Both the position numbers and the translations under genes were made by a program. Positions 10,046 through 34,647 of a stretch of 64,000 bases of DNA are shown one piece after another (within the stretch, counting starts at the first letter, position 1; every line of letters starts with the position of its first letter). The notes under the pieces are model-generated. The model was given only the letters and a program-made list of their open reading frames with translations. It did no database searches and was not told the origin of the DNA. This DNA is from Gammaproteobacteria bacterium (lineage in GTDB: Bacteria; Pseudomonadota; Gammaproteobacteria; Burkholderiales; SG8-39): positions 39,127 to 103,126 of the forward strand of contig JBGQFD010000001.1 of assembly GCA_041496705.1 (NCBI GenBank), read 5' to 3'.

Positions 10046-11034
10046 CAACGCTGCCACGCCCGTTCGGTCCTGCCCGCACGCGCGGCAACCGCGTGCAGGG
10101 TGCGAGTCGCCGTATCCTCGAGCGGCCCGCCGAGACTCACGGCTATTTGTGCTTCTGCCAGTGCCTCCTCATAGCGATCGAGGTCGGCGAGCGTCTGCGC
10201 AAGGTTATTGTGCGCGGCGGCCGACCGGGGGTGAGTGAGGGTCGCCCGGCGGAAAGCCCGCTCTGCAGTCTCGAAGTCGCCCTGGACGTAAGCGGTGTTT
10301 CCCAGACCGAGGAGCGCCACGAGGTTTTCCGGCGCGCGTCTCAAGACGCTGTCGTAAGCGGTCCGCGCGGGCTCCGGCTGACCGCCTTTTTCGAGCTTCA
10401 TGACGGCGCCCAGATAATCCGGAACGGCTAGGCTGGCTGGCAAGCGCTGCGGAGGCAGCGCGAGCATCGCCCAGCGACCGCCGCCCTTCCACGTGCGTTC
10501 GAAGGAATCGAACGTCATCTCGACCCTGCGCTTGCTCCCCGAGCGCAGCACGATGCGCCCGGCGTCCAAGTCATAGCCGACCGCCACTGCGTAGTGCCAG
10601 GCGGGTTTCCAGTCGAAAGCGAGGTTCTGCAGGACGACAACCGGGGTGCCGGCCGCGATCTCGGCGAGCAAGTCCGGGAGGTTCGGTTTCAACTCGACTG
10701 CAACGAAGCCGTTGCGGCGCGCTGCGGCGAGCATTTCCACCTGGAGGCTGCCGTGTCTGCCTGGAACATAGACCTGCGGCCGCAACGTCTCCGGCTCGAC
10801 CGGATTGCCGCCGGCACCGAGCACCATCGCCAAGGCGGCCGGGCCGCACTGGTACTCGTCCTGCGCGTAGAACGGAACGCCGTCGAGTTCGACGCGTTGC
10901 GGAATTTGCTCGAGCCCGTCTTGCGCGACCGCCTGGAGCCGCGGTGCGGCGCAGCCTGCAAGCGATATCAGCACGAAGCCCAGCGCCAGAAAGCGGCGGG
11001 CGCTACGCCGGCACGGCGAGGAGCGATCGCTCAC
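10045..11034 (-). CDS. PA2778-family C39-like cysteine peptidase lipoprotein with C-terminal TPR repeats
   Basis: 329 aa with lipobox LISLAGC, papain/C39-like catalytic motifs YQCGPAALAMVL and WHYAVAVGYD, and a TPR-like C-terminus. GTGA start/stop overlap with the upstream gene. Confidence 0.8.
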   Translation of the reverse strand: MSDRSSPCRRSARRFLALGFVLISLAGCAAPRLQAVAQDGLEQIPQRVELDGVPFYAQDEYQCGPAALAMVLGAGGNPVEPETLRPQVYVPGRHGSLQVEMLAAARRNGFVAVELKPNLPDLLAEIAAGTPVVVLQNLAFDWKPAWHYAVAVGYDLDAGRIVLRSGSKRRVEMTFDSFERTWKGGGRWAMLALPPQRLPASLAVPDYLGAVMKLEKGGQPEPARTAYDSVLRRAPENLVALLGLGNTAYVQGDFETAERAFRRATLTHPRSAAAHNNLAQTLADLDRYEEALAEAQIAVSLGGPLEDTATRTLHAVAARAGRTERAWQR

Positions 11035-11438
11035 TTGGCCGTGCGGGTGAAGCTAAACACTTTGGTGAACCCCAGTATGTCGGTCACCAGGAGAATGACG
11101 AACGCCAGGAACCCGACCAAGAGGGCGGCCGAGATCGCATCGCCGCCTGCGGGAAGCGCGTCCAGGCGCGCGGCAACGCGCTCGATTTCGTCATCGCTCA
11201 GGGCGTCCACCCGGGCCTTCGCGTCCGAGGCGCTGACGCCATGGCGCTCCAGCCCGGCACGGACGTCGTCGCGCGCGAGAAGGGTCGCAATTCGTTCGCG
11301 CGCGCTGGCGCGCAGCGGCTGTACGGTGTCCGCCTCATCGGTCGCGACCAGTTCCGCGTGAGCCACCGGAACCGGCAGGCCGAAGCAGAACATGCTGACG
11401 ACGAGCACGCGCGCGACGCTCCTGTAGACGCTCTTCAT
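11031..11438 (-). CDS. PA2779-family protein (signal peptide, helical periplasmic region, C-terminal TM anchor)
   Basis: 135 aa with signal peptide ending VAHA, the SDDEIERVAARLDALPAGGD segment and the hydrophobic tail AISAALLVGFLAFVILLVTDILGF. GGAGAG Shine-Dalgarno upstream. Usual partner of PA2778-family peptidases. Confidence 0.7.
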   Translation of the reverse strand: MKSVYRSVARVLVVSMFCFGLPVPVAHAELVATDEADTVQPLRASARERIATLLARDDVRAGLERHGVSASDAKARVDALSDDEIERVAARLDALPAGGDAISAALLVGFLAFVILLVTDILGFTKVFSFTRTAK

Positions 11439-12222: not shown

Positions 12223-13563
12223 TCAGCTCTTTTCGAGCTTGAACATCTTGGATTCGAGCTGGTGGCGCTCCAGGAGCTTGTAGAACTCGGTGCGGTTGCG
12301 CTGCGCAAGCTTCGCCGCCTGGGTTACGTTGCCCCCGGTCATACGCAGAATGCGAACCAGATAGTCGCGCTCGAATGCGCCGCGGGCCTGTTCGAGCGAA
12401 GCGAGCGGCATCGGCTGCTCCTTGAGCGCTTGCTGCGCCAGGGAGGCCGGTACTACGCCGGAGGGGCACAGTGCCACCATCTGTTCCACCGCGTTGACCA
12501 GCTGGCGCACGTTTCCGGGCCACGCCGCTGCGAGGAGCAGCTCAAGCGCCTCTGGCGCAAAAGCGCTCACATCCTTCTTGTAGCGCTCGGCGGTGCTCTT
12601 GAGGTAGTGCATGGCGATGGGAGCGATGTCCTCGCGCCGCTCGGCGAGAGGCGGCAACGCCAGGGAAACGACGTTCAGGCGGTAATACAAGTCTTCCCGG
12701 AAGCGCCCTGCTTTCATCTGGGCGTCGAGGTCCCGGTGCGTGGCGGAGATGACGCGCACGTCCACCGGCATGCCCTGCGTGGCTCCGACCGGCCGCACCT
12801 CGTGGTCCTGCAGCACGCGAAGCAGCTTCGCTTGGAGAGACAACGGCATGTCGCCGATCTCGTCCAGGAAAAGCGTGCCGCCGTCGGCCGCAGGCACCAA
12901 CCCCTTGTGATCGTACATCGCACCGGTAAAAGACCCCTTTCGATGGCCGAACAACTCCGATTCGAGCAGGTTTTCGGGAATCGCGGCGCAGTTCACGGCC
13001 ACGAAGGGCCCGTCGGCGCGGCGGCTGGCACGGTGGATAGCCCGAGCGAGGAGTTCCTTTCCGGTGCCGCTGGCACCCTGGATGAATACGCTCGCATCCG
13101 ATTGAGCGACCAGCCGCGCCTGGTGGAGCACGTTCTCCATCTTGGGGCTCTGCGTCACGAACTCGCGCCGCCAGTCCTCCTCGATTGTCCCCGGCCCGGA
13201 TCCAGAGAGCCGCAGCGCCTGCTCGACCTGCTCGAGCAACTGTTTTCCGTCGAACGGCTTGGGCTGAAAACCGAATACACCGCGCCGGGTGGCGGAAACG
13301 GCGTCGGGGATCGTGCCATGCGCGGTCAGGATGATGACGGGGAGCATCGGCGCCTGCTTGCGCACCTCCTCGAAAAGAGACATGCCGTCCATCCCGCCCA
13401 TTTTGAGGTCGGTGATGATCAGGTCGGGCCGGGATGCTGCGAGCGCGGCGAGCGCCCTTTCGCCGCTGTCCACAGCCTGAACGCGGTAGCCCGCGGCGCT
13501 CAAACGCAATGACAACAGCTTGAGGATGTCAGCGTCGTCGTCGACGAGAAGAATCGTGCTCAT
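12223..13563 (-). CDS. sigma-54-dependent response regulator (NtrC family, GlrR/QseF-like)
   Basis: 446 aa with a receiver domain (LLVDDDADILK...ITDLKMGGMDG), AAA+ motifs GASGTGKE, ESELFGHRKGSFTGA and GTLFLDEIG, and a C-terminal Fis-type HTH (GNVTQAAKLAQRNRTEFYKLL). Confidence 0.9.
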   Translation of the reverse strand: MSTILLVDDDADILKLLSLRLSAAGYRVQAVDSGERALAALAASRPDLIITDLKMGGMDGMSLFEEVRKQAPMLPVIILTAHGTIPDAVSATRRGVFGFQPKPFDGKQLLEQVEQALRLSGSGPGTIEEDWRREFVTQSPKMENVLHQARLVAQSDASVFIQGASGTGKELLARAIHRASRRADGPFVAVNCAAIPENLLESELFGHRKGSFTGAMYDHKGLVPAADGGTLFLDEIGDMPLSLQAKLLRVLQDHEVRPVGATQGMPVDVRVISATHRDLDAQMKAGRFREDLYYRLNVVSLALPPLAERREDIAPIAMHYLKSTAERYKKDVSAFAPEALELLLAAAWPGNVRQLVNAVEQMVALCPSGVVPASLAQQALKEQPMPLASLEQARGAFERDYLVRILRMTGGNVTQAAKLAQRNRTEFYKLLERHQLESKMFKLEKS

Positions 13564-14066
13564 TTTGGTCGTGCCTTTTCGCGCTCGATGATCCCGCGTT
13601 CGATGGCTTTCAAAGCGTCGAGTTGTTCCCGCAACTGCGCCGAGCGACGCTGCTCCCGGGTGCGCTCGCTGATCTGCGCGTACAGCAGCCCTGCAAACTG
13701 CTGCAGCGACCCCTTCGGCAGCTCGAGGGCGGCGGACTCGGCGAGCGGCTCGAGCAAGCCGGCCGCGCGAGTGTCGTCGTTGAAAGCGGTTCCGGGCAGG
13801 GCGAGCAGCAGTGCCAGCCTGACCCGCCCATAGACGCCCCGGCCCTTGGAAAACATCTGGGTCGAAACGTTCAACTCACGCCGCTGCTCGTCAGCATGCA
13901 TGGCCGCGACTCGCTGAACGTAACCGACGAGTTCCGCGACCACGCGGGCTTCTTCGGCCTCGCGTGTCTGCACTACGGCGGGCGAGTTCCCGCCCGCGAA
14001 CGGAAAAGCCGCGCAGCCGGCCAGTACCGAAGCCCACGTTGCCATTATCGCCAGACTAAGACGCAC
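13560..14066 (-). CDS. helical lipoprotein, positional equivalent of QseG/YfhG
   Basis: A GTG start at 14066 gives the signal peptide (M)RLSLAIMATWASVLAGC with a lipobox. The ATG at 14045 is the alternative start. It overlaps the kinase stop and the regulator start, so all three are tightly coupled. Confidence 0.55.
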   Translation of the reverse strand: MRLSLAIMATWASVLAGCAAFPFAGGNSPAVVQTREAEEARVVAELVGYVQRVAAMHADEQRRELNVSTQMFSKGRGVYGRVRLALLLALPGTAFNDDTRAAGLLEPLAESAALELPKGSLQQFAGLLYAQISERTREQRRSAQLREQLDALKAIERGIIEREKARPK

Positions 14067-15531
14067 GGCCCCGGGACGCAGCGGCGACGAGCGGAATCGA
14101 GACGCGGAAATGCGCACCGCCGGCCTGGTTGTCCACGACCTCGACCCTCCCCGCATGAGCAACAACGAACTCCCTGACGATGGCGAGCCCCAGGCCGCTG
14201 CCCTGCACCCGACCGTGATGCTGGTACTCGCCCTGATAGAACCAGTCGAAAATCCTCTCCCCATCCTCGGGCGGTATACCCGGGCCCGCGTCCCCGACGT
14301 CCAAAATCACGTTATCTCCCTCGCGTCGCAGCGCCAAGGAAATAATACCCCCATCGGGGGAGTATTTGATCGCGTTTGAAACTAGGTTGGCCACCACCGC
14401 GCGCAGCTTGTCCGCGTCCGCCTCGAGAGCGACAGGCTGCAGTTGCAGTTCCGCGCGAATGCCCCTGGCCCGGGCCGCAAGCCGATGATCCTCGATGACC
14501 TGGTCCACGATGCGATCGAGTCGCAGCATCGACATGTCCAGTCGCCCGACACTCTCCTGGGCGCGGTGGTAACTGAGCAGGTCTTCGATCAGAGCCTGCA
14601 GCTGCACGCTCTTCTGCTGCAAGATGGCGACGATCTCCCGTTGCGGAGCGGCGAGCGGTCCGGCCGTTCCTTCCATCAAGAGTTCCGAGCCTTCCCGCAA
14701 CGCCGTGAGCGGCGTCTTCAGCTCATGCGAGACGTGGCGCAGGAAGAATCGCTTTTGCTGTTCCAGCTCGATCAGCCGCTGGCGCAGCCACTCTAGGCGC
14801 CCCCCGAGATACTTCAGGTCGGCCGGCCCGCCGACGCGAATGCCGGCATCGAACTCACCCGCACCCAGCCGCCGGATCGCCTGGTCGAGTTGCCGGATCG
14901 GCCTGGCGATGAGCAGCGTAACCCCGACGGCCAGGAATATTCCCAGCGGAATCGTGGCCGCCAGCTGTAACCAGAGCGTTTTCTGCGCGCGCTCGGCCGT
15001 GCGACGCATTGAGTCGATCTCCCGATCGATCAGGGCGTTGCTCGTGTTCAGCACTTCACGAGCCAGCTCCGACAGCGAGACATAGCCTTCTATGAGGGCC
15101 GTCTTCTCCGCGCGAACCGACGGACGGCGCAGCAAGGTTTCGTACAATCCCTGTTCCTTGTCGATCGTGGCGTTGAGGCCGCGCAATTGCAGTTCGTCCA
15201 GCGGCTGCAGGGACAGTTCGCTCGTGTTGGATTTGAAGTTCCCTCTCAACCTGGCGTAGTCGTTGAGGAGCTCCGCGTCATCGAGGATCAGGTACTGGCG
15301 CGCCACCCGCTCGAGCGCCGTCGTCTGCTCGACCAGCAAGCGGCTGCCGCGCGAAGCCTGGGCTGCCTGCGAGACTGCGGTCTGACTTTGCCCCGCAAGC
15401 TCCTCGACGTACACTGCCGCGTTGTAGAACGCCACGATCAACGGCGCGGCCACCAGTGCGAACGCGAGCAGCAGCAGGCTGAGGAACGATCTGGGGTAGT
15501 AGCGACGGGGAAAGTCGAGCCCGATTTTCAT
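14056..15531 (-). CDS. sensor histidine kinase (two TM helices, periplasmic domain, HAMP, HisKA, HATPase)
   Basis: 491 aa with H-box RHVSHELKTPLTAL, N-box NLVSNAIKYSP and G-boxes DVGDAGPGI and GSGLGLAIV. Confidence 0.9.
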   Translation of the reverse strand: MKIGLDFPRRYYPRSFLSLLLLAFALVAAPLIVAFYNAAVYVEELAGQSQTAVSQAAQASRGSRLLVEQTTALERVARQYLILDDAELLNDYARLRGNFKSNTSELSLQPLDELQLRGLNATIDKEQGLYETLLRRPSVRAEKTALIEGYVSLSELAREVLNTSNALIDREIDSMRRTAERAQKTLWLQLAATIPLGIFLAVGVTLLIARPIRQLDQAIRRLGAGEFDAGIRVGGPADLKYLGGRLEWLRQRLIELEQQKRFFLRHVSHELKTPLTALREGSELLMEGTAGPLAAPQREIVAILQQKSVQLQALIEDLLSYHRAQESVGRLDMSMLRLDRIVDQVIEDHRLAARARGIRAELQLQPVALEADADKLRAVVANLVSNAIKYSPDGGIISLALRREGDNVILDVGDAGPGIPPEDGERIFDWFYQGEYQHHGRVQGSGLGLAIVREFVVAHAGRVEVVDNQAGGAHFRVSIPLVAAASRGRAS

Positions 15532-19946: not shown

Positions 19947-21047
19947 TCAGGTATTCTTGGAGACGACGATATTCGGGAACTTCGAGGTCATGTCCCGCGC
20001 CGATTCGGCGATCTTGATAGCGACGCGCCGCGCGATGGCGCGGTAAGCCTCGGCAGCTCGACCGTCGGGATCGGCCACCACCGTCGGCCTGCCCGAATCG
20101 GCCTGCTCGCGGATATTGATGTCGAGGGGCATCGCTCCCAGGAGCTCGGTGCCGTAGTCCTTGCACATGCGCTCGGCCCCGCCCTGGCCGAAGATGTGCT
20201 CCTCGTGGCCACAGTTGGAGCAGATGTGAGTGCTCATGTTCTCGACCACGCCGAGAATGGGAATACCGACTTTTTCGAACATCTTGAGCCCCTTGCGGGC
20301 GTCGATCAGGGCGATGTCCTGAGGCGTGGTGACGATCACCACCCCGGTCACGGGCACCTTCTGCGCAAGCGTTAGCTGAATGTCTCCGGTGCCGGGCGGC
20401 ATGTCGACGATCAGGTAGTCCACGTCGCGCCAGCGAGTGTCCTTGAGAAGCTGCTCCAGTGCCTGGGTCACCATCGGTCCGCGCCAGACCATGGGCGTGT
20501 CGCTATCGATCAGAAAACCGATCGAGATCGCCTGGATCCCGTGTCCGGTCATGGGCTCGAGGGTCTTGCCATCGCGCGACTCTGGCCTCCCGGTGATGCC
20601 GAGCATCATGGGTTGGGAAGGTCCGTAAATGTCGGCGTCCAGCACTCCGACACTGGCACCTTCGGCCGCCAGCCCGAGAGCCAGGTTCACCGCGGTCGTG
20701 GATTTGCCCACGCCCCCCTTGCCCGAGGCCACGGCGATGATGTTCTTGACGCCGGGAATGAGCTTCACCCCGCGCTGTACCGAGTGCGAAACGATCTTGC
20801 TCGTGACGCTGACCGATACGGTACCCAATCCGGGGATCGCGCGCAGCCTCGTCGATACGAGCCGGCGCAACGGATCGAACTGGGTTTTCGCGGGATAGCC
20901 GAGTTCGACCTCCAGCGTGACGGCGTCGCCGTCGATGCGCAGGTTCTTGACCGATTTCGTGGCAAGGAGATCCTTGCCAGTATTCGGGTCAAGAATTTCC
21001 TTGAGCGCGCCGTGAATTTGTTCCTGCGTGACTGGCATGGTGGACAT
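19947..21047 (-). CDS. apbC: iron-sulfur cluster carrier protein ApbC/Mrp
   Basis: 366 aa with an N-terminal MIP18/DUF59-like domain, a deviant Walker A (SGKGGVGKST) and a CSNCGH cluster-binding motif. Confidence 0.93.
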   Translation of the reverse strand: MSTMPVTQEQIHGALKEILDPNTGKDLLATKSVKNLRIDGDAVTLEVELGYPAKTQFDPLRRLVSTRLRAIPGLGTVSVSVTSKIVSHSVQRGVKLIPGVKNIIAVASGKGGVGKSTTAVNLALGLAAEGASVGVLDADIYGPSQPMMLGITGRPESRDGKTLEPMTGHGIQAISIGFLIDSDTPMVWRGPMVTQALEQLLKDTRWRDVDYLIVDMPPGTGDIQLTLAQKVPVTGVVIVTTPQDIALIDARKGLKMFEKVGIPILGVVENMSTHICSNCGHEEHIFGQGGAERMCKDYGTELLGAMPLDINIREQADSGRPTVVADPDGRAAEAYRAIARRVAIKIAESARDMTSKFPNIVVSKNT

Positions 21048-21210
21048 AGAGGGGCAGCATCCGGGGGTTACCGGCCGGCAATAGGTTGATATTCTAGCAA
21101 CTTTCGGATGCTCCCCGGGCGCCAGCGCGGTAGAATGCTGTCATACCGGGGGGACGGCCGCCGGCATCGCCGGCGGTTCGGACGCGGACCACTACGACTC
21201 TTACCAAGGC

Positions 21211-22545
21211 ATGCCGGACCCGACCAACAGAACCTTTATCTATAGCGTGCTGTTTCTCGACATTGTCGAGTATTCACAGTGCGTTGTCCCCAAACAGATC
21301 CGGCTCAAGGAGCGTTTCAACGCGGTTCTGACCGAGGCGATCGCCGGGGTGCCGGCGGACGATCGCATCATCCTCGATACTGGCGACGGGGCGGCAGTCT
21401 GTTTCCTGGGGGACCACGAAGACGCCATGTTCGTTGGCCTGGCCATGCGCGACGCGATCGCCTGCGAGGATCAGACCGGGGGCCGTGAGTTGGACATTCG
21501 CATCGGCATCAACCTCGGGCCTGTGAGGCTCGTCAAGGACATCAACGGCAACCCCAACATCATCGGCGACGGCATCAACGTGGCCCAGCGCGTCATGAGT
21601 TTCGCCGTGAAGGGCCAGATCCTGGTGCATCGCGATTACTACAACCTCATGGTGCGCATGTCCGAGGATTACGCCCAGCTGTTCCACTACGAAGGGGCGA
21701 TGACAGACAAGCACGTTCGCGAGCACGATGTTTATTCCATCATCAACGCCGCGCCCAGCACCCTCCGCCGGACCGCGCCCTTGCCTGTGCCCAGGCCGGT
21801 GATACGCCTGCCACGCCTCAGGCTTCCCAGCATCCACCTGTCCGACCTGCGGGTTCTCAGCGCACGCCTTCGGCCGATCGCTTCCAGGCTGGCGGTGAAC
21901 AGCAAGCTCCTTGTCGCCGCGCCGCTGGCGTTCATCCTGATCGTCAGTTCCGGCGTGATTGCGCGCAGCCACCGGAACTCCCCTGGAGAAGAAAAGAGCG
22001 GCGCACCCGTGTCGTCCGGCACGCCCAGGGCGGAGCAATCCCCCCTGAAGGTCGCAACGGCCGGAGCCGATCAGATCCAGCCGGACCAGGGGAGAACTGC
22101 CCCGGTGGAAAATCCGGCCACCCCTCCCAAGTCGGAGAATCCGACCGCTCCGGCCAAGTCGCAGCGGCCCATCGCCAACGCCAGGGCCCGGGATGCAGGT
22201 TCGACACGGGATGCCTTCCCGGCTGGCCGGAGGGCACCTGTGCAGACCGCCAGGGTCAAGGATGTCGCCGAAATGCTGGCCCTGCCCAAGGAGGCCGAAA
22301 CTCCTGTCGCGCCGCGTGGGCCCACCGCGGACACGGGGATCAACGTCGTGATCGTCGCGTTTCCCTGGGCCGAGGTCTACGTAGATGGGAACCGGCTGGG
22401 GGTCAGTCCGCCGCTCCGCTCGATCCCGCTCAAGCCGGGCAAGCACAAGGTAGAACTGCGCAATTCTTCTTTTCCCGCCCACGTCGAGACCGTCGAGGTC
22501 AAGAGCGGCGCTGAGATCAGCGTAAAGCACCGGTTCCGCCGCTGA
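21211..22545 (+). CDS. class III nucleotidyl cyclase-homology-domain protein with TM helix, Pro-rich linker and PEGA-like C-terminal domain
   Basis: 444 aa with CHD-like motifs VLFLDIVEYS, ILDTGDGAAVCF and IGDGINVAQRV, TM helix LLVAAPLAFILIVSSGVIA, and the C-terminal FPWAEVYVDGNRLGVSPP...KPGKHKVEL. Confidence 0.75.
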   Translation: MPDPTNRTFIYSVLFLDIVEYSQCVVPKQIRLKERFNAVLTEAIAGVPADDRIILDTGDGAAVCFLGDHEDAMFVGLAMRDAIACEDQTGGRELDIRIGINLGPVRLVKDINGNPNIIGDGINVAQRVMSFAVKGQILVHRDYYNLMVRMSEDYAQLFHYEGAMTDKHVREHDVYSIINAAPSTLRRTAPLPVPRPVIRLPRLRLPSIHLSDLRVLSARLRPIASRLAVNSKLLVAAPLAFILIVSSGVIARSHRNSPGEEKSGAPVSSGTPRAEQSPLKVATAGADQIQPDQGRTAPVENPATPPKSENPTAPAKSQRPIANARARDAGSTRDAFPAGRRAPVQTARVKDVAEMLALPKEAETPVAPRGPTADTGINVVIVAFPWAEVYVDGNRLGVSPPLRSIPLKPGKHKVELRNSSFPAHVETVEVKSGAEISVKHRFRR

Positions 22546-22551
22546 GGGACG

Positions 22552-22953
22552 ATGCCACGCTTCCGCTATCACGCGCTGTTGTTCGGATGCCTGGTGCTGA
22601 CCGGTTGCGCGTCGTTCAGGAACTTCAACGAGGACCTGGTCGGGATGTTCGCGGCGAAGGGTCAGAGGGAACTCGAAGTCGCCATCAAAGCCTACGAAGA
22701 CGGGGAGTACGCCTACTCGGCAAGGCTCCTGCAGGCAAGCCTGGATTCGGGCCTGCGCGGGGCGGCCAACCAGGTGCGAGCACACAAGTACCTCGCGTTT
22801 CTTCACTGCGCGGCCAGCCGCATACAACAGTGCCGCGACGAGTTCAGGAAGGCACTCGACATCGACCCTTCCTTCGATCTCCGGGACGACGAAGTCGGGC
22901 ACCCCGTGTGGGGTCCGGTTTTTCGCAGCCTGAGAACGACCTCCAGGAAATAA
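22552..22953 (+). CDS. small lipoprotein with TPR-like helical repeat
   Basis: 133 aa with lipobox LVLTGC. Only 6-nt gaps separate it from both neighbouring genes. Confidence 0.65.
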   Translation: MPRFRYHALLFGCLVLTGCASFRNFNEDLVGMFAAKGQRELEVAIKAYEDGEYAYSARLLQASLDSGLRGAANQVRAHKYLAFLHCAASRIQQCRDEFRKALDIDPSFDLRDDEVGHPVWGPVFRSLRTTSRK

Positions 22954-22959
22954 CCGGCC

Positions 22960-24150
22960 ATGACCGAACCGTGGCTGCTCGGCCGCTATGAAGTCGTTGC
23001 CGAACTCGGCAAAGGCGCCATGGGCGTCGTCTATCGGGCGAACGACCCGATGCTCAACCGCACGGTGGCCATCAAGACCATCAACATGGACGAGGCCGAG
23101 AACGAGGGTATGGCCGAGTACGAGGCGCGCTTCTACACCGAGGCCAAGGCGGCGGGCGGCCTGAATCACCCGAACATCATCATCATCTATGACATCGGCA
23201 AGAGCAGCCACCTAGTGTACATGGCGATGGAGTACATCGAGGGACGCGAGCTGCGCGAATTGCTCACCGAAGGGCAGCCGCTGCCCGTCGTACAGGGAAT
23301 CGACATCGCGGCGCAGATCGGGGAGGGATTGGCGTACGCCCACCAGCACCAGGTCGTGCATCGGGACATCAAACCTGCCAACATCCTCATCACCGGCGAA
23401 GGCCGCGCCAAGATCGCCGATTTCGGCATCGCGCGCATGCGCTCCAGCGAGACGCGTACGCAGACGGGCATCATTCTCGGCTCACCCAAGTACATCTCTC
23501 CCGAGCAGGTGGTCGGCAAGCGCGCCGACCATCGCTCCGATATCTTTTCCCTGGGCGTGATCCTCTACCAGTGCCTGACCGGCATGACCCCCTTCAACGG
23601 CGAAGGTCTGACCGCGCTCATGTACCAGATCACCAACTACGAGCCGCCGCCACCCAGTTCGACCAATCCCCAGGTACCGGTGATGCTCGACTACATCATC
23701 GCCAAGGTCCTCGCCAAGGCGCCGGAGGCGCGCTACCAGAGTGCGGCCGACCTGGCGAACGACCTGCGCGAGTGCAGATTGCAGATGGAAGGTGGCACGG
23801 CGGCCAGCCTATCGGCGACGGCGCCGATCCCCATCATGCCGGCCCTGGCGGCAGCCGCGCAGAAGCCTTCGGCGCTCCCGGCGCCCGATGCCACGGAGGA
23901 TCCTGCGGCGCTGCCACCTCCCACCAAGGGCATATCGCGCGCTTTCGACTCGCACGAAGCCACCTCGCGCCTGATGCGCCAGATCAGCGCCGACGGCACC
24001 GAGGAATTCGTGGTGTCGCCGTTTTCAACCAGCGCGCTGCGGTCTGGCAGGCGGTCCACGGAACATCCCTGGGGACCGCGCGAGAACGCCATCTTCGCTG
24101 CTACCGTAATCGCCGCGATGTTCATCGCTACCGCCATCGTCCTGCTGTGA
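22960..24150 (+). CDS. Hanks-type serine/threonine protein kinase, C-terminally tail-anchored
   Basis: 396 aa with GKGAMGVVY, VAIK, HRDIKPANIL, DFGIA and SPEQ. A single TM helix sits at the extreme C-terminus (IFAATVIAAMFIATAIVLL). Confidence 0.9.
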   Translation: MTEPWLLGRYEVVAELGKGAMGVVYRANDPMLNRTVAIKTINMDEAENEGMAEYEARFYTEAKAAGGLNHPNIIIIYDIGKSSHLVYMAMEYIEGRELRELLTEGQPLPVVQGIDIAAQIGEGLAYAHQHQVVHRDIKPANILITGEGRAKIADFGIARMRSSETRTQTGIILGSPKYISPEQVVGKRADHRSDIFSLGVILYQCLTGMTPFNGEGLTALMYQITNYEPPPPSSTNPQVPVMLDYIIAKVLAKAPEARYQSAADLANDLRECRLQMEGGTAASLSATAPIPIMPALAAAAQKPSALPAPDATEDPAALPPPTKGISRAFDSHEATSRLMRQISADGTEEFVVSPFSTSALRSGRRSTEHPWGPRENAIFAATVIAAMFIATAIVLL

Positions 24151-24211
24151 GCGCAGTGCCGCGCCGGAGACCGGCGCGTGGCGGTAAAATGACAGCTTTT
24201 TGAAAGTCAGC

Positions 24212-26299
24212 ATGTCTCGCCGGCTGTTCGTCACCACCGCCCTCCCTTACGCGAACGGCGCGTTTCACATCGGCCATATCATGGAGTACATCCAGGCCGA
24301 CATCTGGGTGCGGTTTCAGCGCATGCAGGGCCATGAAGTGCATTTCATCGGCGCCGACGACGCGCACGGCGCGCCCATCATGCTCGCGGCGGAGAAGGCC
24401 GGAAAATCGCCTGAGCAATTCATCGACGAAATCGCGAAGGGACGCAAGCAATACCTCGACGGCTTTCACATCGAATTCGACAACTGGCACTCGACTCATT
24501 CGAAAGAAAATACCGAGCTATCGCAAGACATATACCGCAAGCTCGTCAAGGCGGGGCTCGTCTACAAAGAAGCGATAGCGCAGTTCTTCGATCCAGTGAA
24601 AAGCATGTTCCTCGCCGACCGTTACATCAAGGGCGAATGCCCAAACTGCGGCGCGAAGGATCAGTACGGGGATGCGTGCGAGAACTGCAGCACCGTGTAT
24701 TCACCCACGCAGCTCAAGAACCCGTACTCGACCCTCTCCGGTGCGAAGCCAGAGCTCAAGTCGTCTGAGCACTACTTCTTCAGACTTTCCGATCCGAAGT
24801 GCACCGAGTTCCTGAAGAAATGGATCGCGGACGCAGGACGGCTCCAGCCGCAGGTCGCGAACAAGGCAAGAGAATGGCTCGAAGGCAAGGGCGAGAAGAC
24901 GCTCGCCGACTGGGACATCTCGCGCGACCCGCCGTATTTCGGCATCCGCATCCCCGACATCAAGGAAGAGAAATACCTCTACGTCTGGCTCGACGCGCCG
25001 ATCGGTTATCTCGCGAGCCTGAAGAACTACTGCTCGAAGAAGAAGCTCGACTTCGAAAAGCTCCTCGCCGACCCGAAAACCGAGCAGATTCACTTCATCG
25101 GAAAAGACATCATCTACTTCCATGCCCTGTTCTGGCCGGCGATGCTGAAATTCGCCGGCTACAAAATCCCGGACCACGTCTACGTGCACGGCTTCATCAC
25201 CGTGTCGGGCGACAAGATGTCGAAGAGCCGCGGAACAGGGATCGATCCTCTGCGATATCTAGAGCTTAGGATGAATCCGGAGTGGCTGCGCTACTACTTG
25301 GCGGCAAAGTTGAATGCAAACGTCGAGGACGTTGACTTCAACCCCGACGACTTCATAGCGCGAGTCAACAGCGATCTGGTGGGCAAGTATGTGAATATCG
25401 CGAGCCGTGCAGCAAAACTCCTCAGTGAGTATTTCCAAGGCCGCATTGATCCAATCAGGGGCCCCGCTCACTCACCTGCCTATTTGCTCGAGCACGCACG
25501 AGCTTCCGCCGATATGACCAAGGGCTACTACGAACGCAGAGAATACAGCCTCGCTCTTCGGGACGCGATGCACCTTGCAGATGAAGTAAACGAGTATTTC
25601 GATTCCAGGAAGCCCTGGGAATTGGCGAAGAAAGTCGCCTTGGAATCAGGGCAACATTTCAAAGAAGAACTCCACGAAGTATGTTCGGTCGCGCTAATTT
25701 GCTTCCGACGCTTGACGATCCAGTTGTCTCCTGTTTTGCCAGTCTTGAGTGAGACGGTGGCCAGAGAGCTTTTCGGAATGGATCGACCATTTACGTGGGC
25801 TGATCTCGAAGTAATACCCGAAAGAATCAATCCTTACCATCACCTAGTGACCCGTGTGGAAGAAAAGCAGCTCGATCAACTCTTCGACGTCCAGTCCGTG
25901 CCGCAGCCGGCGGCACCCCAGCGGCACGCCGAAAAGCAGCAACACGCAGCCAAGGAGCTATCCGTGGGCGACGGGACCATTTCAATCGACGACTTCAACA
26001 AAGTGGACCTGCGCATCGCGAAGATCGTCAAAGCCGAGCAAGTCGAAGGGGCGGACAAGCTCCTGAGGCTGACCCTCGACCTCGGCGGTGGAACGCGCAC
26101 GGTGTTCGCCGGGATAAAATCCGCCTACGACCCGGCGAAGCTCGAGGGCCGGCTCACTGTGATGGTCGTGAACCTCGCGCCGCGCAAGATGAAGTTCGGC
26201 GTTTCGGAGGGCATGGTGCTTGCCGCGAGCGGCGACGACCCGGGCCTTTACCTGCTCGCGCCGGACAACGGCGCCCGGCCGGGCATGAAGGTCAAATAG
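24212..26299 (+). CDS. metG: methionine--tRNA ligase
   Basis: ATG at codon 5 of ORF 24200..26299. Motifs: [11 protein letters not shown] (HIGH), Zn knuckle CPNCGA...CENC, KMSKS, and a C-terminal EMAP/Trbp111-like domain. Confidence 0.97.
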
Positions 26300-26301
26300 G
26301 A

Positions 26302-28323
26302 ATGGACGTGGCGCCGCTTTCAGGTTCGCTGCTCGTCGCGGTTGCGTGGCTCGCGATTGCGGCGCTGGGGCTGGTACCCGCCGGCAACGCGTTCTTCGCC
26401 AGGCGGCTCGCGTTTCCGCTCGGGGCGCTCGCCGGTGTCGCGCTCGCGGCCTTCGGCCTACAGGCGGTGTGGCTGCCGGCGCAGTCCTTGACGCTGCCGC
26501 TCGGGCTGCCCGACCTGCCTTTCCATCTGCGCATCGACGCGCTCGCAGGATTCTTCCTGATGCTGCTCGGCTCGGTGTCGGCGGGCATCTCCGTGTACTC
26601 CGCGGGCTATTTCCGCGAAGAGTCCTCGGGGCGCCTCGCGCTCATCAGCCTTCAGTACCACGTGTTTCTTGCCAGCATGGCCTTCGTGCTGCTCGCCGAC
26701 GACGCCTATATGTTCATGGTGGCCTGGGAAACGATGGCGCTGTCCTCGTATTTTCTGGTCATCACCGACCACCGGCAGCCGGCGATACGCAGCGCCGGTT
26801 TCCTCTATCTGCTGATCGCGCATCTGGGAGCGATCGCGATCCTCTTGTGCTTCGGCGTGCTGCACGGCGGACGCGGCGATTACACGTTCGCCGCGCTGCG
26901 CGCCGCCCAGCTGCAGCCGGCGTGGGCGAGCGTGGCCTTCCTGCTCGCCTTCTTCGGCTTCGGCGCCAAGGCGGGGATGATCCCGCTTCACGCATGGCTG
27001 CCCGAGGCGCACCCGGCTGCGCCTTCCCCCGTCTCGGCACTGATGAGCGGCATCATGCTCAAGACCGCCATCTACGGCATGGTGCGGGTGATCTTCGACC
27101 TGATCGGAAACGTGCGCTGGGAATGGGGCATGGTGGTGCTCGCGGTCGGTGCCGGCACGACGCTCTTCGGCGTGCTCTACGCCCTCATGCAGCACGATCT
27201 GAAACGCCTGCTCGCCTATCACTCGGTCGAGAACATCGGGATCATCCTGCTCGGCCTCGGTATGTCGATGGTGTTCATCGGCTTCGGCCATCCGGCGGCA
27301 GGTGCGCTGGGCCTGATCGCCGGGCTCTACCACACCCTCAACCACGCCGTGTTCAAGGGACTCCTCTTCCTCGGCGCGGGCTCGATCCTGCACTCGACGG
27401 GCCTGCGCAACCTGAACGACATGGGCGGCCTGATCCACAGCATGCCGAGGACCGCGTTCTACTTCCTCATCGGCGCGCTCGCGATCTCCGCGCTGCCGCC
27501 CTTGAACGGATTCGTATCCGAGTGGCTGACTTTCCAGACTGCCCTGCAAGCACCCCTCCTTCTCCAGAACAGCATCGTGCGCAGCCTGCTGCCGCTTTTC
27601 GCGGCGACTCTGGCCCTCGCCGGCGCGCTCACCGCGATGTGCTTCGTCAAGGTCTACGGCATCGCCTTTCTCGGCCGGCCGCGCGAGCCCGCGCATCCTT
27701 CGCCTCTGCCCCACGCGGGGGACGCGGGCCTCATGGAACGCTTTGGCATGGCCTGGCTTGCGGCCGGCTGCTTCGTGCTCGGGCTATTCCCGAGCTCGTT
27801 TCTATTGATCCTGAACCGAGTCGGCGTTTCGCTGACCGGCCAGGGCTTGTCCGAGCAGGCGCTTGCCGGTTCGGGCTGGCTGTGGCTCGTGCCCACCGCG
27901 CCGGAGCAGGCCAGCTACTCGCCCGTCATCTTTCTGGTGGTGATTGTCGCCGTGACGCTGCTTGCGTTCCTGCTGGTGCGCCGCTTCTACCACGGCCGCA
28001 TGCGCTTCGCCGATCCCTGGGACTGCGGCTACCCCGAGCAGACCCCGCGCATGCAGGACACGGCGGACGCTTTCGGCCAGCCGATCCGCCACGTCTTTGG
28101 CCCGATCTACCGCATGGACCGCAGGCTCCCCGGTCCCGACGACGCCGCGCCGAGATACGTGCTCAAAGTCGAAGACCGCCATTGGTATTGGCTCTACCTG
28201 CCCGTGGCGCGTGCGGCCGAATTCGTCTCGTCGAAGATCGCCCTGCTGCAGCAAGGCCGGATCAGCATTTACCTGCTCTACAGCTTCATCACCCTGATCG
28301 CGCTGCTGGTGTTCGTGAGATGA
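26302..28323 (+). CDS. HyfB-like antiporter-type membrane subunit (NuoL/M/N family)
   Basis: 673 aa, polytopic, same length class as E. coli HyfB. Motifs WETMALSSYFLV and LPEAHPAAPSPVSALMSG. The start lies 2 nt after the metG stop. Confidence 0.85.
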   Translation: MDVAPLSGSLLVAVAWLAIAALGLVPAGNAFFARRLAFPLGALAGVALAAFGLQAVWLPAQSLTLPLGLPDLPFHLRIDALAGFFLMLLGSVSAGISVYSAGYFREESSGRLALISLQYHVFLASMAFVLLADDAYMFMVAWETMALSSYFLVITDHRQPAIRSAGFLYLLIAHLGAIAILLCFGVLHGGRGDYTFAALRAAQLQPAWASVAFLLAFFGFGAKAGMIPLHAWLPEAHPAAPSPVSALMSGIMLKTAIYGMVRVIFDLIGNVRWEWGMVVLAVGAGTTLFGVLYALMQHDLKRLLAYHSVENIGIILLGLGMSMVFIGFGHPAAGALGLIAGLYHTLNHAVFKGLLFLGAGSILHSTGLRNLNDMGGLIHSMPRTAFYFLIGALAISALPPLNGFVSEWLTFQTALQAPLLLQNSIVRSLLPLFAATLALAGALTAMCFVKVYGIAFLGRPREPAHPSPLPHAGDAGLMERFGMAWLAAGCFVLGLFPSSFLLILNRVGVSLTGQGLSEQALAGSGWLWLVPTAPEQASYSPVIFLVVIVAVTLLAFLLVRRFYHGRMRFADPWDCGYPEQTPRMQDTADAFGQPIRHVFGPIYRMDRRLPGPDDAAPRYVLKVEDRHWYWLYLPVARAAEFVSSKIALLQQGRISIYLLYSFITLIALLVFVR

Positions 28324-28333
28324 GCTGCGCAAG

Positions 28334-29284
28334 ATGAACTACGGGGCTGCAAGCGCGTTCCAGATCCTGCAGTCGGTGTTCGTGGTGCTCGCCGCGCCGC
28401 TGCTCATGGGCTGGGTCAATCAGTGCCGCGCCTGGCTGCAGAACCGATCGGCGCCGAGCCTGCTGCTGCCGTACTGGACGCTGGCGAAGCTGTTCCACAA
28501 GGACGCCGTGTTCGCACGCAACGCCTCGCCGATTTTTCGATGGACGCCCTACATTCTGTTCGGCTGCATGTGGCTCGCCGCGGGCATCGTGCCGGTACTG
28601 GCGACCGGCCTGCCCTTCGCGCCCGCCGCGGACATCATCGCGCTCGTCGGAGTGTTCGCGCTCGCGCGAGTGTTCTCCGCGCTCGCCGCCATGGACATCG
28701 GCACCTCGTTCGGCGGACTGGGCGCCCGGCGCGAAATGCTGATCGGTTTTCTCGCCGAGCCGGCGATGCTGATGACGCTGTTCACCGCGGCCTTCATTTC
28801 CGGCTCCACCCAGCTCACTACCATCGTGGACACGCTCGGACACCGCGAGTTCGCGCTCCACCCGAGCCTCGCCTTCGCGGCGGTCGCCTTCCTCATGGTG
28901 CTGCTCGCCGAGAACGCGCGCATCCCGATTGACAATCCGACTACTCACCTCGAGCTCACCATGGTGCACGAGGCGCTGATTCTCGAGTACTCGGCGCGGC
29001 ATCTTGCGCTGATCGAATGGGCGGTCGCGATCAAGCTCTTCGCCTACATCACCATCGGCATTGCGCTCTTCGTCCCCTGGGGCATCGCCGAGGCCGGCGA
29101 CTGGATGGCGCTGCCGCTGGCGGTCGCGGCGCTCCTGATCAAGCTCGCCCTGGCCGGCGCCGGGCTGGCACTGATCGAAGCAGTGCTCGCCAAGCTGCGG
29201 CTCTTCCTCGCCCCCGAGTTCCTGTCCACCGCGTTCCTGCTGGCGGTGCTGGGCATGCTCACGCACTTTCTGGTTCAAGGCTGA
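28334..29284 (+). CDS. HyfC/HycD-like (NuoH-family) membrane subunit
   Basis: 316 aa, polytopic, with FDIPTAE-equivalent region RIPIDNPTTHLELTMVHEALILEYS. Confidence 0.85.
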   Translation: MNYGAASAFQILQSVFVVLAAPLLMGWVNQCRAWLQNRSAPSLLLPYWTLAKLFHKDAVFARNASPIFRWTPYILFGCMWLAAGIVPVLATGLPFAPAADIIALVGVFALARVFSALAAMDIGTSFGGLGARREMLIGFLAEPAMLMTLFTAAFISGSTQLTTIVDTLGHREFALHPSLAFAAVAFLMVLLAENARIPIDNPTTHLELTMVHEALILEYSARHLALIEWAVAIKLFAYITIGIALFVPWGIAEAGDWMALPLAVAALLIKLALAGAGLALIEAVLAKLRLFLAPEFLSTAFLLAVLGMLTHFLVQG

Positions 29285-29289
29285 AAGAG

Positions 29290-29946
29290 ATGCCGCTCCT
29301 CGCCCAGCTCGTCAACGTTCTCGCGGCATTTCTGCTGCTGCTCGCGTTCGCCATGCTTTCCCAGCGCCGCGTCCTCACTCTGATCAAGCTCTTCGCCTGG
29401 CAGGGCGCGGCGCTCGCGTTGTCGACCGGAATCGTCGCCTGGTCGACCGGTCAGACGCACCTCTACTGGTCGGCGCTGCTGACGGTGCTGCTCAAGGTGA
29501 TCCTCATCCCCTGGGTCCTGCACCGACTGATCGACCGACTGTACGTGCGCTGGGACATCGAGACCCTGATCAACATTCCGACCACGATGCTGATCGGCAT
29601 CGGGCTGGTGATCTTCGCCTTCGCTCTTGCCGCCCCGATCTCGCAGATGGCGAGCACACTCACGCGCTCCACCCTGGGGATCGCGATGGCGAGCATTCTG
29701 CTCTCCTTCCTCATGATGATCGTGCGCAGAAAGGCGGTGCCGCAGGTGATCGGCTTTCTCGCGATGGAAAACGGCCTGTTCTTCGCCGCTACCAGCGCGA
29801 CCTACGGAATGCCGCTTGTGGTGGAGCTCGGCGTGGCGCTCGACGTGCTGGTGGGCACCTTCATCTTCGGCATCTTCTTCTTCCATATCCGCGAGCAGTT
29901 CGACTCCCTCGACATCCGGCATATGGAAAAGCTGAAGGAAGACTGA
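29290..29946 (+). CDS. HyfE-like small membrane subunit
   Basis: 218 aa starting at the internal Met of ORF 29017..29946. About six TM helices. Position and size match HyfE. Confidence 0.75.
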   Translation: MPLLAQLVNVLAAFLLLLAFAMLSQRRVLTLIKLFAWQGAALALSTGIVAWSTGQTHLYWSALLTVLLKVILIPWVLHRLIDRLYVRWDIETLINIPTTMLIGIGLVIFAFALAAPISQMASTLTRSTLGIAMASILLSFLMMIVRRKAVPQVIGFLAMENGLFFAATSATYGMPLVVELGVALDVLVGTFIFGIFFFHIREQFDSLDIRHMEKLKED

Positions 29947-29947
29947 G

Positions 29948-31396
29948 ATGGAAATCGCGCTTGTCCTCGGCGTCCCGCTACTCGGCGGGCTGCTACTCGC
30001 GCTCGTCGGCCACAAGCGCTGGGCGCCGGAGCTGAATGCTTTAATGAGCCTCATCGCCCTTGTCGCCGCGGCAGCGCTGACCCGTCGCGTCATCACCGAC
30101 GGCCCGATGACGGCGCTGCAGGAGCAGTTCTTCGTCGATCCGTTCAACGTGTTCCTGGTGGCGCTGACGGCCTTCGTCGCCTTCACCACCGCGCTGTTCT
30201 CCCGGCCCTACATGCGCATCGAGGAGCACCACGGGCGCCTGAACGCGGCACGCTTGCGCCTCTACCACAGCATGTATCAGTTGTTTTCCTTCACCATGGT
30301 GTTGTGCCTGCTATCGAACAATGTCGGCATCCTGTGGGTGGCACTGGAGGGCGCGACGCTCTCGACCGTGCTGCTGGTGAGCCTGTACCGCACGCCAGCG
30401 AGCCTCGAGGCGGCGTGGAAGTATTTCATTCTCTGCTCGGTCGGCATCGCGCAGGCATTGTTCGGCGTGATTTTGCTCTATTTCGCCGCGGAAAAAGTTC
30501 TCGGCCCGGGAGGGACTTCACTCCTGTGGACGCACCTGTACGCAGTGCGCGAACAGCTCGAACCGACGGTGCTGTCGCTCGCGTTCGTGTTCCTGCTTGT
30601 CGGCTTTGGCACCAAAGTGGGCCTGGTGCCGTTGCACAACTGGCTGCCCGACGCGCACGCCGAAGGCCCGACCCCGGTATCGGCGGTGCTCTCGGGGCTG
30701 CTCCTCAACGTTGCGCTATACGCCGTGGTGCGCAGCAAGGTCCTGGTGGACGGCGCGCTCGGGCGCAATTTCTCCGGCGGACTGATGATGGGCTTCGGCC
30801 TGCTCTCGGTCGTCGTTGCGGCGTTCTTCCTCTCCCGGCAGCGCGACATCAAACGCATGTTCGCCTATTCGTCGGTCGAGCACATGGGCATCATGACTTT
30901 CGCCTTCGGCATGGGCGGACCGGTGGCGGCGTTCGCAGGACTCCTGCACATGACGGTGCACTCGCTCACCAAGAGCGCGATCTTCTTCACCGTCGGCCAC
31001 GCCTCGCAGAAGACCGGCACGCAGAACATGGCGGACATCCGCGGGCTCATCGAGCAGAGCCCCGCGATCGGTTGGGGCCTGGTGCTCGGCAGCCTCGCCA
31101 TCCTCGGCATGCCGCCCTTCGGCGTGTTCACGAGCGAGTTCATGGTGCTCACCACCGCGATGCACGAGCACCCCTGGGCGACGCCTTTCCTGCTGGTGGC
31201 GCTCGGCGTGGCGTTCGCCGCGATTTTCGGCAAGGTGCAGCCGATGGTATTCGGCGAAACCAATGCGCGCCGGCTGCCGCACGCGCCGGCGCTCATCCCG
31301 GTTTTCGTCCACCTGGGGATCGTATTGATGCTCGGACTCTACATTCCGCCCTATCTCGTCGGCTGGTATCGCCAGGCGGCGGCGCTGATCGGGTGA
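29948..31396 (+). CDS. HyfF-like antiporter-type membrane subunit (NuoM/N family)
   Basis: 482 aa with LHNWLPDAHAEGPTPVSAVLSG and YSSVEHMG. Confidence 0.85.
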   Translation: MEIALVLGVPLLGGLLLALVGHKRWAPELNALMSLIALVAAAALTRRVITDGPMTALQEQFFVDPFNVFLVALTAFVAFTTALFSRPYMRIEEHHGRLNAARLRLYHSMYQLFSFTMVLCLLSNNVGILWVALEGATLSTVLLVSLYRTPASLEAAWKYFILCSVGIAQALFGVILLYFAAEKVLGPGGTSLLWTHLYAVREQLEPTVLSLAFVFLLVGFGTKVGLVPLHNWLPDAHAEGPTPVSAVLSGLLLNVALYAVVRSKVLVDGALGRNFSGGLMMGFGLLSVVVAAFFLSRQRDIKRMFAYSSVEHMGIMTFAFGMGGPVAAFAGLLHMTVHSLTKSAIFFTVGHASQKTGTQNMADIRGLIEQSPAIGWGLVLGSLAILGMPPFGVFTSEFMVLTTAMHEHPWATPFLLVALGVAFAAIFGKVQPMVFGETNARRLPHAPALIPVFVHLGIVLMLGLYIPPYLVGWYRQAAALIG

Positions 31397-34407: not shown

Positions 34408-34647
34408 TCAGCTGCGCTGCCCCTCGCAAGCCTCCGAGTCGCGCTGGCAGGCTTCCTGGCAGGCCTGCGCGGCCGGAGCCTCGGTGGTCGTGCGCCGGCA
34501 GATCTTCATGCACGTGTCGAATGCGCCGCGGCACGTGGGGGCGCCGTCGGGCCCGGAGATGCCCCTGTAGGCGTAGTAGCCGACCGCCACGGCAATGGCG
34601 ATCACGACCAGAAGACCGAACGAGCTCAGGCCCTGCTGCGAATTCAT
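34408..34647 (-). CDS. small membrane-anchored cysteine-rich protein
   Basis: 79 aa with TM helix LSSFGLLVVIAIAVAVGYYAY followed by C-x6-C-x3-C-x12-C-x3-C-x6-C. ATGA overlap with the upstream lipoprotein gene. Confidence 0.6.
   Translation of the reverse strand: MNSQQGLSSFGLLVVIAIAVAVGYYAYRGISGPDGAPTCRGAFDTCMKICRRTTTEAPAAQACQEACQRDSEACEGQRS

Follow-up and report, generated by a model that had tools for sequence, protein, structure and literature searches.

Three consecutive plus-strand genes at positions 21211-24150 of the 64-kb window analysed here (the whole stretch presented above, by whose numbering all positions are given) encode a protein with a cytoplasmic cyclase-homology domain (CHD) and a periplasmic PEGA-like domain, a small lipoprotein of the TssQ family, and a Hanks Ser/Thr kinase anchored in the membrane by its C-terminus, hereafter P1, P2 and P3 in gene order. 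We interpret this trio as an envelope-signalling operon, vertically inherited among Betaproteobacteria and complete in itself, in which P1 and P2 would sense the state of the envelope and the CHD and the kinase would provide the outputs, and put the probability of this interpretation at roughly 0.55. It is carried by the gene structure, the domain identities, the conservation of catalytic residues, a gene order preserved in several genomic contexts, and the co-occurrence of PEGA-like and TssQ domains in an otherwise different system, the gene clusters for type VI secretion (T6SS) of Burkholderia and Paraburkholderia.

The open reading frames (ORFs) of the trio lie at 21211-22545 (P1, 444 aa), 22552-22953 (P2, 133 aa) and 22960-24150 (P3, 396 aa), with only 6 nt between P1 and P2 and again between P2 and P3, and with apbC and metG as divergent flanks, exactly as described in the initial annotation, which had been drawn from the letters of the sequence. 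GC content at third codon positions (GC3) is 0.79-0.84 in the trio genes, against 0.44-0.47 at second positions (GC2), a pattern like that of neighbouring genes, and the base composition of the window shows no discontinuity at the trio. The coding statistics thus mark these as real genes that are not compositionally foreign.

That the three genes belong together is argued by their distribution. The P1 family is large, with more than 7,000 matches in a database clustered at 90% identity and 606 clusters (50% identity) at E<1e-30. At least 444 P1 loci were found among GTDB species representatives, and the gene content of the best 80 was scanned with local profile hidden Markov models (HMMs). P1, P2 and P3 stand in that order in 61 of these 80 loci; nine have P1 and P2 only, six have P1 and P3 only and four have P1 alone, several of the incomplete loci being cut by contig ends. 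Trio loci come from Burkholderiales, Gallionellaceae, Nitrosomonadales and others, and occupy three unrelated neighbourhoods: 1) in close relatives, the arrangement seen here, apbC|P1-P2-P3|metG-hyf; 2) in other Burkholderiales, apbC|metG-P1-P2-P3; 3) in Gallionellaceae and Nitrosomonadales, dnaX-ybaB-recR-rluB-P1-P2-P3-cptA, followed by nadB and rpoE-rseB. The location between apbC and metG singled out in the initial annotation therefore holds for this genome and its close relatives and not for the other lineages. Gaps or overlaps within the trio amount to a few nucleotides across loci, and clustering of the ORFs within 6 kb of it returned, as the only recurrent companions, lineage-specific housekeeping genes (metG, apbC, hyf-like genes, dnaX, ybaB, recR, rluB, cptA, nadB, rpoE and rseB). 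As the trio stays joined while its surroundings change, it is very probably a conserved functional module. The neighbourhood survey proposed in the initial annotation, for which a failure of the three families to co-occur beyond this genome would have been damaging, thus came out in favour of the module.

The N-terminal CHD of P1 (residues 1-178; 21211-21744, plus strand) was delimited by structure prediction, Foldseek and residue mapping. Pfam assigns it to Guanylate_cyc (PF00211) at 28.4 bits, above the family's gathering score (21.9), and in an AlphaFold2 model built on a 40-sequence alignment residues 8-177 have a predicted local distance difference test score (pLDDT) above 90, followed by a disordered cytoplasmic linker up to the transmembrane (TM) helix. 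Foldseek matches this domain to class III cyclases at E about 1e-10, among them Rv1900c, CyaB, Ma1120, RhGC and mammalian adenylate cyclase domains, with target-normalised TM-scores of 0.76-0.81 for Rv1900c and Ma1120 and 0.70-0.72 for CyaB. Catalytic residues were mapped by phmmer alignment to the PDB cyclases 3mr7 and 5oyh, and their conservation was measured over 150 cluster representatives, at most 50% identical to one another. The metal-binding Asp pair, aligned to 3mr7, is D17 (147/150) and D59 (139/150); the transition-state pair, N123 (137/150) and R127 (144/150), aligns with GDTVNTASR of 5oyh and with 3mr7. All the motifs on which a CHD had been proposed from the sequence, LFLDIVEYS (holding D17), DTGDGAAV (D59) and GDGINVAQR (N123 and R127), are present, and these four residues are conserved family-wide. 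Nearly invariant positions further include D56, N101, N116 and the stretch D166-K-H-x-R-E-H172, within which Lys167, equivalent to the KGK lysine, is almost without exception; Q29 and R52 are also strongly conserved. Such near-invariance points to selection on the active site.

What the initial annotation overlooked, whilst recognising the catalytic set, is the pair of residues at the substrate-specifying positions. The purine-specifying Lys of 3mr7 corresponds to Leu55 in P1, a position occupied by Leu, Ile or Val in 149 of the 150 representatives, and the Asp/Cys position (566 of RhGC, 5oyh) to Asn116, conserved as Asn in 140. The P1 CHD accordingly lacks the canonical specificity pair, Lys/Asp for ATP or a Glu/Cys-type pair for GTP. 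Class III cyclases with non-canonical specificity pairs can still be active, as in Rv0386 (Gln/Asn) and Rv1900c (Asn/Asp), and Leu55 and Asn116 lead us to propose a nucleotide product of non-standard specificity. By fold, metal site and transition-state residues P1 is a class III CHD protein, with predicted cyclase activity; whether its CHD is indeed catalytically active we regard as evenly balanced.

Beyond the CHD, a hydropathy scan finds a single TM helix in P1 (residues 232-252; 21904-21966, plus strand), which AlphaFold2 models as a helix at 231-253. It is followed by a disordered periplasmic linker rich in Pro and Ala (residues 253-376; 21967-22338, plus strand), of low pLDDT (about 45-58) and poor conservation, whose length across the family ranges from 37 to 166 residues with a median of 99. 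The C-terminal residues 377-444 (22339-22542, plus strand), which include Trp386, form a periplasmic PEGA-like domain that Pfam recognises as PEGA (PF08308) over residues 387-443 at 29.4 bits, against a gathering score of 20.8, and that AlphaFold2 folds as a seven-strand beta-sandwich over 377-441 with pLDDT above 90. Hydropathy, Pfam and the model thus agree on the one TM helix and the PEGA-like domain first proposed from the sequence; the spacer between them, which had been called Pro-rich, is so to a moderate degree only (14% Pro and 32% Pro plus Ala over 125 residues).

P2 carries the lipobox L16-T17-G18-C19, with Cys19 encoded by nt 22606-22608 as read from the translation, and is probably anchored in the outer membrane. 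It scores 106.3 bits against NCBIfam NF038027, the "TssQ family T6SS-associated lipoprotein" (cut-off 65), and weakly against TPR_2, and its TssQ domain spans residues 35-129, the family alignment defining a domain of about 95 residues. A Cys pair (C86 and C94) and an E-x-G-H-P-x-W-G motif are invariant in that alignment, and longer homologues of 212-226 aa carry two tandem copies of the domain. AlphaFold2 predicts an all-helical, TPR-like fold which, along with the LTGC lipobox, bears out the small TPR-like lipoprotein of the initial annotation; Foldseek searches with this model gave generic TPR matches only (E at least 0.016) and no informative specific homologue. It is worth noting that "TssQ" in the literature denotes either an unrelated TM protein of Bacteroidota or a gene name in Proteus.

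The third protein is, by its sequence, a bona fide Hanks kinase. Pfam Pkinase (PF00069) matches it at 181.5 bits, the kinase domain covering residues 10-260, and the catalytic motifs K39, H134-R-D136, N141, D154-F-G156 and S180-P-E182 are conserved in 66 orthologues. The hydropathy scan places its sole TM helix at residues 377-396 (24088-24147, plus strand), the last of these being the final residue of the protein, so that no part of P3 reaches into the periplasm; the kinase with a membrane anchor at its extreme C-terminus and no sensor of its own, as first read from the ORF, is confirmed. Between the kinase domain and the anchor, the 66-orthologue alignment reveals a motif, G-[IL]-S-x-x-F-D-S-x-x-A-T-x-R-L, at residues 323-338 (23926-23973, plus strand), whose FDS and AT are kept in at least 90% of the orthologues amid an otherwise unconserved linker. 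It is visible too in the pairwise alignment with the relative L008 and is a candidate docking or phospho-acceptor site.

Evidence from outside this window that the periplasmic part of P1 and the lipoprotein P2 work as partners comes from T6SS clusters. A tblastn search with P2 returned matches on large Burkholderia and Paraburkholderia replicons. In the B. arboris cluster (L012, NZ_CP101525.1, 1321-13762) the match, scoring 124.5 bits on NF038027, is a gene for TssQ that stands directly upstream of the T6SS FHA gene and diverges from tssJ-tssK-tssL-tssM; at the other end of the cluster lie tssA and a 785-aa Hanks kinase composed of a kinase domain, a long linker, a TM helix, a Pro/Ala linker and a C-terminal PEGA-like domain. 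This last domain and P1 residues 368-442 share 38% identity (E 6e-14). Paraburkholderia sp. PGU19 likewise has a cluster kinase with a PEGA-like C-terminus about 8 kb from TssQ. In it and in L095, as in B. arboris, TssQ adjoins fha and diverges from tssJKLM, and the kinase shows the B. arboris succession of parts. Assembly L095 carries tssA, the kinase, tagF, tssM, tssL, tssK and tssJ on one strand and tssQ, fha and a PP2C gene on the other, and B. thailandensis (L094) keeps the same order without a PP2C gene adjoining fha. A profile HMM of the P1 PEGA-like domain matches the C-terminus of three of the three testable T6SS kinases, a count that leaves out the B. thailandensis kinase, whose C-terminus lies beyond the L094 stretch. 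The TssQ of B. thailandensis equals P2 in size and shares with it 46% identity, the Cys pair and a GHPxWGP motif.

Genuine TssQ genes in these clusters sit between tssJ and fha, and P2 does not: the 64-kb window contains no T6SS core gene, Fha or PP2C, so P2 is a member of the TssQ family by sequence without being T6SS-associated. That PEGA-like and TssQ domains are found together in two otherwise different systems suggests that the periplasmic domain of P1 and P2 act together, and of the evidence independent of this window it is the strongest for such a partnership. On these grounds P2 probably pairs with the PEGA domain of P1, and the two domains look like a portable periplasmic sensor pair. 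The periplasmic sensing by P1 and P2 coupled to both nucleotide and phosphorylation outputs, as first suggested from the architecture, gains support in its sensing half; a constant coupling is contradicted by loci that have only P1 and P2 or only P1 and P3.

These variant loci are themselves informative. At least six complete P1-P2 loci lack the kinase (L022, L026, L046, L048, L071 and L083), most of them in metagenome-assembled genomes (MAGs) that bear the label Deltaproteobacteria or Syntrophus and one in a MAG from Burkholderiales. Downstream of P1-P2 they have unrelated genes (MatE, DUF748/AsmA, DAHP synthase), with MatE and DUF748/AsmA-like genes in two, and every catalytic residue of the CHD is intact. 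Kinase-less loci of this kind argue that P1 and P2 form a viable core and that P1 has its own output. Conversely, P1 is followed directly by P3 in loci without P2 (L075, L082, L086, L090 and L091) from Gallionella, Gallionellaceae and Sideroxydans MAGs, and these five Gallionella-type loci have Gly, Glu or Asp at the PEGA-domain position otherwise taken by Trp386. Trp386 is invariant in 61 of 61 trio loci, is retained in eight of the nine P1-P2 loci (in the remaining one, L081, the P1 ORF is split in two and the alignment has a gap at this position) and has an equivalent in the PEGA domains of the T6SS kinases. The loss of Trp386 where P2 is absent suggests that this residue contacts P2.

Taken together, these features can be arranged into a mechanism in which P1, a single-pass inner-membrane protein whose PEGA domain is borne on a long flexible linker, would constitute with P2 a sensor spanning the periplasm, P2 binding the PEGA domain from the outer membrane. 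Changes in the envelope would alter this contact and with it the clustering or self-association of P1, thereby switching the CHD on or off, and the nucleotide made by the CHD would be of non-standard specificity. P3, held in the same membrane, would be recruited or activated by clustered P1, perhaps through its FDSxxATxRL motif, and would then phosphorylate targets encoded outside the operon. The cytoplasmic enzyme, in P1 as in the T6SS kinase, is tied to the membrane and to the periplasmic domain by disordered linkers only, which makes a conformational relay through the protein unlikely. The active site of class III cyclases is formed across a dimer interface and these enzymes are active only as dimers. 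In response to envelope perturbation, the T6SS kinase PpkA/TagE dimerises and autophosphorylates, and so becomes active, downstream of TagQ, a lipoprotein of the outer membrane (PMC13584744). Together, these two precedents suggest regulated self-association as the mechanism. Coupling between P1 and P3 along these lines is a tentative proposal, for which we would give slightly less than even odds.

Several considerations weigh against this interpretation. Placement of P2 in the outer membrane has the E. coli +2 rule (Ala20) as its sole ground. With Leu55 and Asn116 in place of Lys and Asp, canonical cyclisation of ATP or GTP is not assured, and the CHD could be a pseudo-enzyme. Among the genes that recur near the trio (about 6-8 kb, 80 loci) there is no cyclic nucleotide receptor or cyclic-nucleotide-binding protein, no Fha or FHA protein, no PP2C and no obvious kinase substrate, which leaves the outputs without a visible target there. 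The resemblance of P3 to the T6SS kinase is generic (68 bits between kinase domains), so that by sequence the trio is no simple fission of that kinase. The correlation between Trp386 and P2 may reflect one evolutionary event, as the five loci belong to one lineage, and a sixth locus without P2, L089, keeps the Trp.

Among other readings of the locus, one must consider a split receptor kinase, in which the CHD would be a silent dimerisation or nucleotide-binding scaffold, P1 the receptor subunit of P3, and Ser/Thr phosphorylation the sole output. In its favour, the PEGA-like domain is joined straight to a kinase in the T6SS homologue, P3 exposes no residues outside the cytoplasm, the purine-binding Lys of canonical cyclases is here a conserved Leu, and Pfam gives the cyclase domain no more than 28 bits. 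A dead enzyme is nonetheless hard to square with metal-binding Asp residues, an Asn/Arg pair and a Lys167 that are almost invariant across the 150 representatives, or with the kinase-less P1-P2 loci, at least six of them complete, that keep their catalytic residues, and we judge this reading rather unlikely. Less probable again, and in our view improbable, is that the trio regulates a T6SS in trans, as a remote input to the threonine-phosphorylation pathway with P3 phosphorylating Fha or TssL of a system encoded elsewhere in the genome. P2 scores above the NCBIfam cut-off for TssQ, and in T6SS clusters genuine TssQ genes do have fha and a PEGA-bearing kinase as neighbours; the trio, however, has no T6SS core gene, Fha or PP2C for company, neither in the window nor, as a recurrent feature, within about 6-8 kb across the 80 loci, it resides in housekeeping neighbourhoods, and it is present in small-genome lithotrophs such as Gallionella and Sideroxydans. 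Moreover, we know of no role for a CHD in T6SS regulation.

A further reading is an anti-phage unit combining a PD-T4-6-like Ser/Thr kinase with a Pycsar-like cyclase, and P3 reaches up to 350 bits on the PADLOC PD-T4-6 models whilst P1 has a marginal match to PycC (16.7 bits). The latter score is at noise level, and the former is probably generic, since the PD-T4-6 models cover the Hanks kinase domain of P3, which many kinase models match. Synteny across an order-level clade, housekeeping flanks, native composition and an envelope and periplasmic topology are all at odds with such a role, no effector gene or defence island accompanies the trio, and the patchy, island-like distribution of defence systems is not seen, making this explanation highly improbable. 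We thus retain an envelope-signalling operon as the preferred interpretation of the trio.

Turning to the wider locus, contigs of an uncultured MAG of Burkholderiales type (GCA_041477765.1; JGI 3300052992) carry a sequence identical to the window. The upstream flank, outside the module, is apbC/mrp (19947-21047, minus strand; Pfam ParA/NUBPL 349.7 bits, with FeS_assembly_P), and the downstream flank is metG (24200-26299, plus strand; Pfam tRNA-synt_1g 481 bits), whose start in a public gene call is the ATG equivalent to window position 24212. E. coli has mrp/apbC next to metG in divergent orientation, and direct apbC|metG adjacency is also found in the relatives L008, L009 and L033. A recent horizontal insertion between the two genes is ruled out by native GC and GC3 and by the same arrangement in relatives down to about 51% identity; likewise, coding statistics, HMM matches and synteny in more than 60 loci rule out a gene-calling artefact or chance adjacency. 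The gap between P3 and metG is 49-61 nt, depending on the start taken, and holds, within 24150-24212, an imperfect hairpin (GCGCCGG-AGA-CCGGCGC) with no adjacent T-run, which a terminator scan did not call, and no canonical terminator. A scan of 20800-24500 found neither a sigma-70-like promoter nor a convincing terminator. Relatives with the metG-P1 order have a gap of only about 9 nt between these genes, and metG may be co-transcribed with the trio.

Immediately 3' of metG lies a hyf/Mrp-like membrane complex (26302-31396, plus strand; Proton_antipo_M, NADHdh and a second Proton_antipo_M), which in relatives continues with Complex1_30kDa/49kDa and Oxidored_q6; many Burkholderiales MAGs show it in synteny with metG and the trio. 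Further along, at 37206-39794 on the plus strand, the window encodes a second Hanks kinase, of 862 aa (Pkinase 173 bits), to whose C-terminus an FGE-sulfatase/SUMF1-like domain is fused (FGE-sulfatase 221.7 bits). The TagQRST-PpkA pathway of Pseudomonas also includes an FGE/SUMF1-like periplasmic protein, TagR, and the 862-aa protein could be another envelope-sensing kinase of the same genome. Near it are a 396-aa ORF without a Pfam match (36065-37255), a DUF6242 protein (34644-35906, minus strand) and a 699-aa patatin-like protein (40701-42800). On the other side of the trio, three minus-strand genes stand in a row at 9056-11438, encoding a DUF6627 protein (11031-11438), a Peptidase_C39-like protein with TPR repeats (10045-11034) and a 333-aa protein without a Pfam match (9056-10057); this row adjoins a sigma54-dependent two-component system at 12223-15531.

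Set beside known systems, the proposed logic of the trio is paralleled by the H1-T6SS pathway of P. aeruginosa (TagQRST-PpkA/TagE-Fha1-PppA), in which a lipoprotein sensor acts upstream of a membrane Hanks kinase. The two differ in several respects: TagQ, set apart here without a sequence comparison, is a different protein from the TssQ represented by P2; PpkA carries a periplasmic domain of its own whereas P3 has none; TagR, TagST, a Fha target, a PP2C phosphatase and T6SS genes belong to that pathway and are absent at the trio; and the trio has a CHD where the pathway has no cyclase domain. The TssQ-bearing T6SS clusters of Burkholderia and Paraburkholderia (kinase-TM-PEGA protein, TagF and Fha, with PP2C in L095) have homologous components, their TssQ domains being 43-46% identical to P2, with the Cys pair and GHPxWGP motif in common, and their kinase and P1 having homologous PEGA-like domains, each preceded by one TM helix and a long linker of Pro and Ala. 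There, however, the PEGA domain is fused to the kinase, whilst in the trio it is fused to the CHD and the kinase P3 is separate. With the cyclases nearest to it in fold, Rv1900c of M. tuberculosis, CyaB of P. aeruginosa and Ma1120 of M. avium, P1 shares the CHD fold, the metal-binding Asp pair, the transition-state Asn/Arg and the logic of a dimeric active site; compared with membrane-anchored class III cyclases its domain order is inverted, the CHD coming first and then the TM helix and periplasmic domain with disordered linkers between them, and the Leu/Asn of P1 replaces their Lys/Asp or Glu/Cys specificity pair. Kinase/cyclase fusions of the TOMM system (NCBIfam TIGR03903) also bring a Hanks kinase and a class III CHD into one unit, as single, soluble, multidomain proteins with AAA/TPR modules, in contrast to the two membrane proteins and lipoprotein of the trio; P3 scores 151.6 bits on the kinase part of that model only, against a family cut-off of 705 bits.

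Literature searches found no account of a PEGA domain combined with a cyclase and nothing relevant on a PEGA-bearing kinase in type VI secretion. Neither TssQ nor PEGA appears in a 2026 review on accessory genes of the T6SS, which gives TagQRST (Pseudomonas) and RtkS (Serratia) as the only known upstream activators of the T6SS kinase (PMC13584744). The Burkholderia version, with TssQ and a PEGA-bearing kinase, thus appears to be uncharacterised too. The claim of the initial annotation that no characterised example exists is upheld by these searches, and should be amended to recognise a related T6SS sensor module which is itself uncharacterised. Class III cyclases, Hanks kinases and TPR-like lipoproteins are each familiar kinds of protein. 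There is no characterised precedent, however, for their joining as in the trio, for the inverted topology of P1, for a tail-anchored kinase without a sensor or for the Leu/Asn pair.

If the interpretation is true, TssQ plus PEGA would represent a third type of periplasmic input to the threonine-phosphorylation switches of T6SS, beside TagQRST and RtkS, and cultured Burkholderia strains offer a genetic system in which this version of the sensor pair can be studied. From the T6SS link comes the testable idea of one sensor cassette wired to either a cyclic-nucleotide or a phospho-Ser/Thr output. At its most speculative, and with a likelihood we consider low, this idea extends to a trans-envelope cassette of PEGA-like and TssQ domains serving differing outputs, in which the Leu55/Asn116 CHD would make a non-canonical nucleotide (for instance a pyrimidine or mixed-specificity cyclic nucleotide monophosphate) reporting on the integrity of the outer membrane or periplasm in hundreds of species of Betaproteobacteria. 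The trio is core-genome-like in a large and environmentally important group of Betaproteobacteria that includes soil Burkholderiales, iron-oxidising Gallionellaceae and Nitrosomonadales, and it follows that, should the operon act as proposed, a major route of envelope signalling in these organisms has so far gone unstudied.

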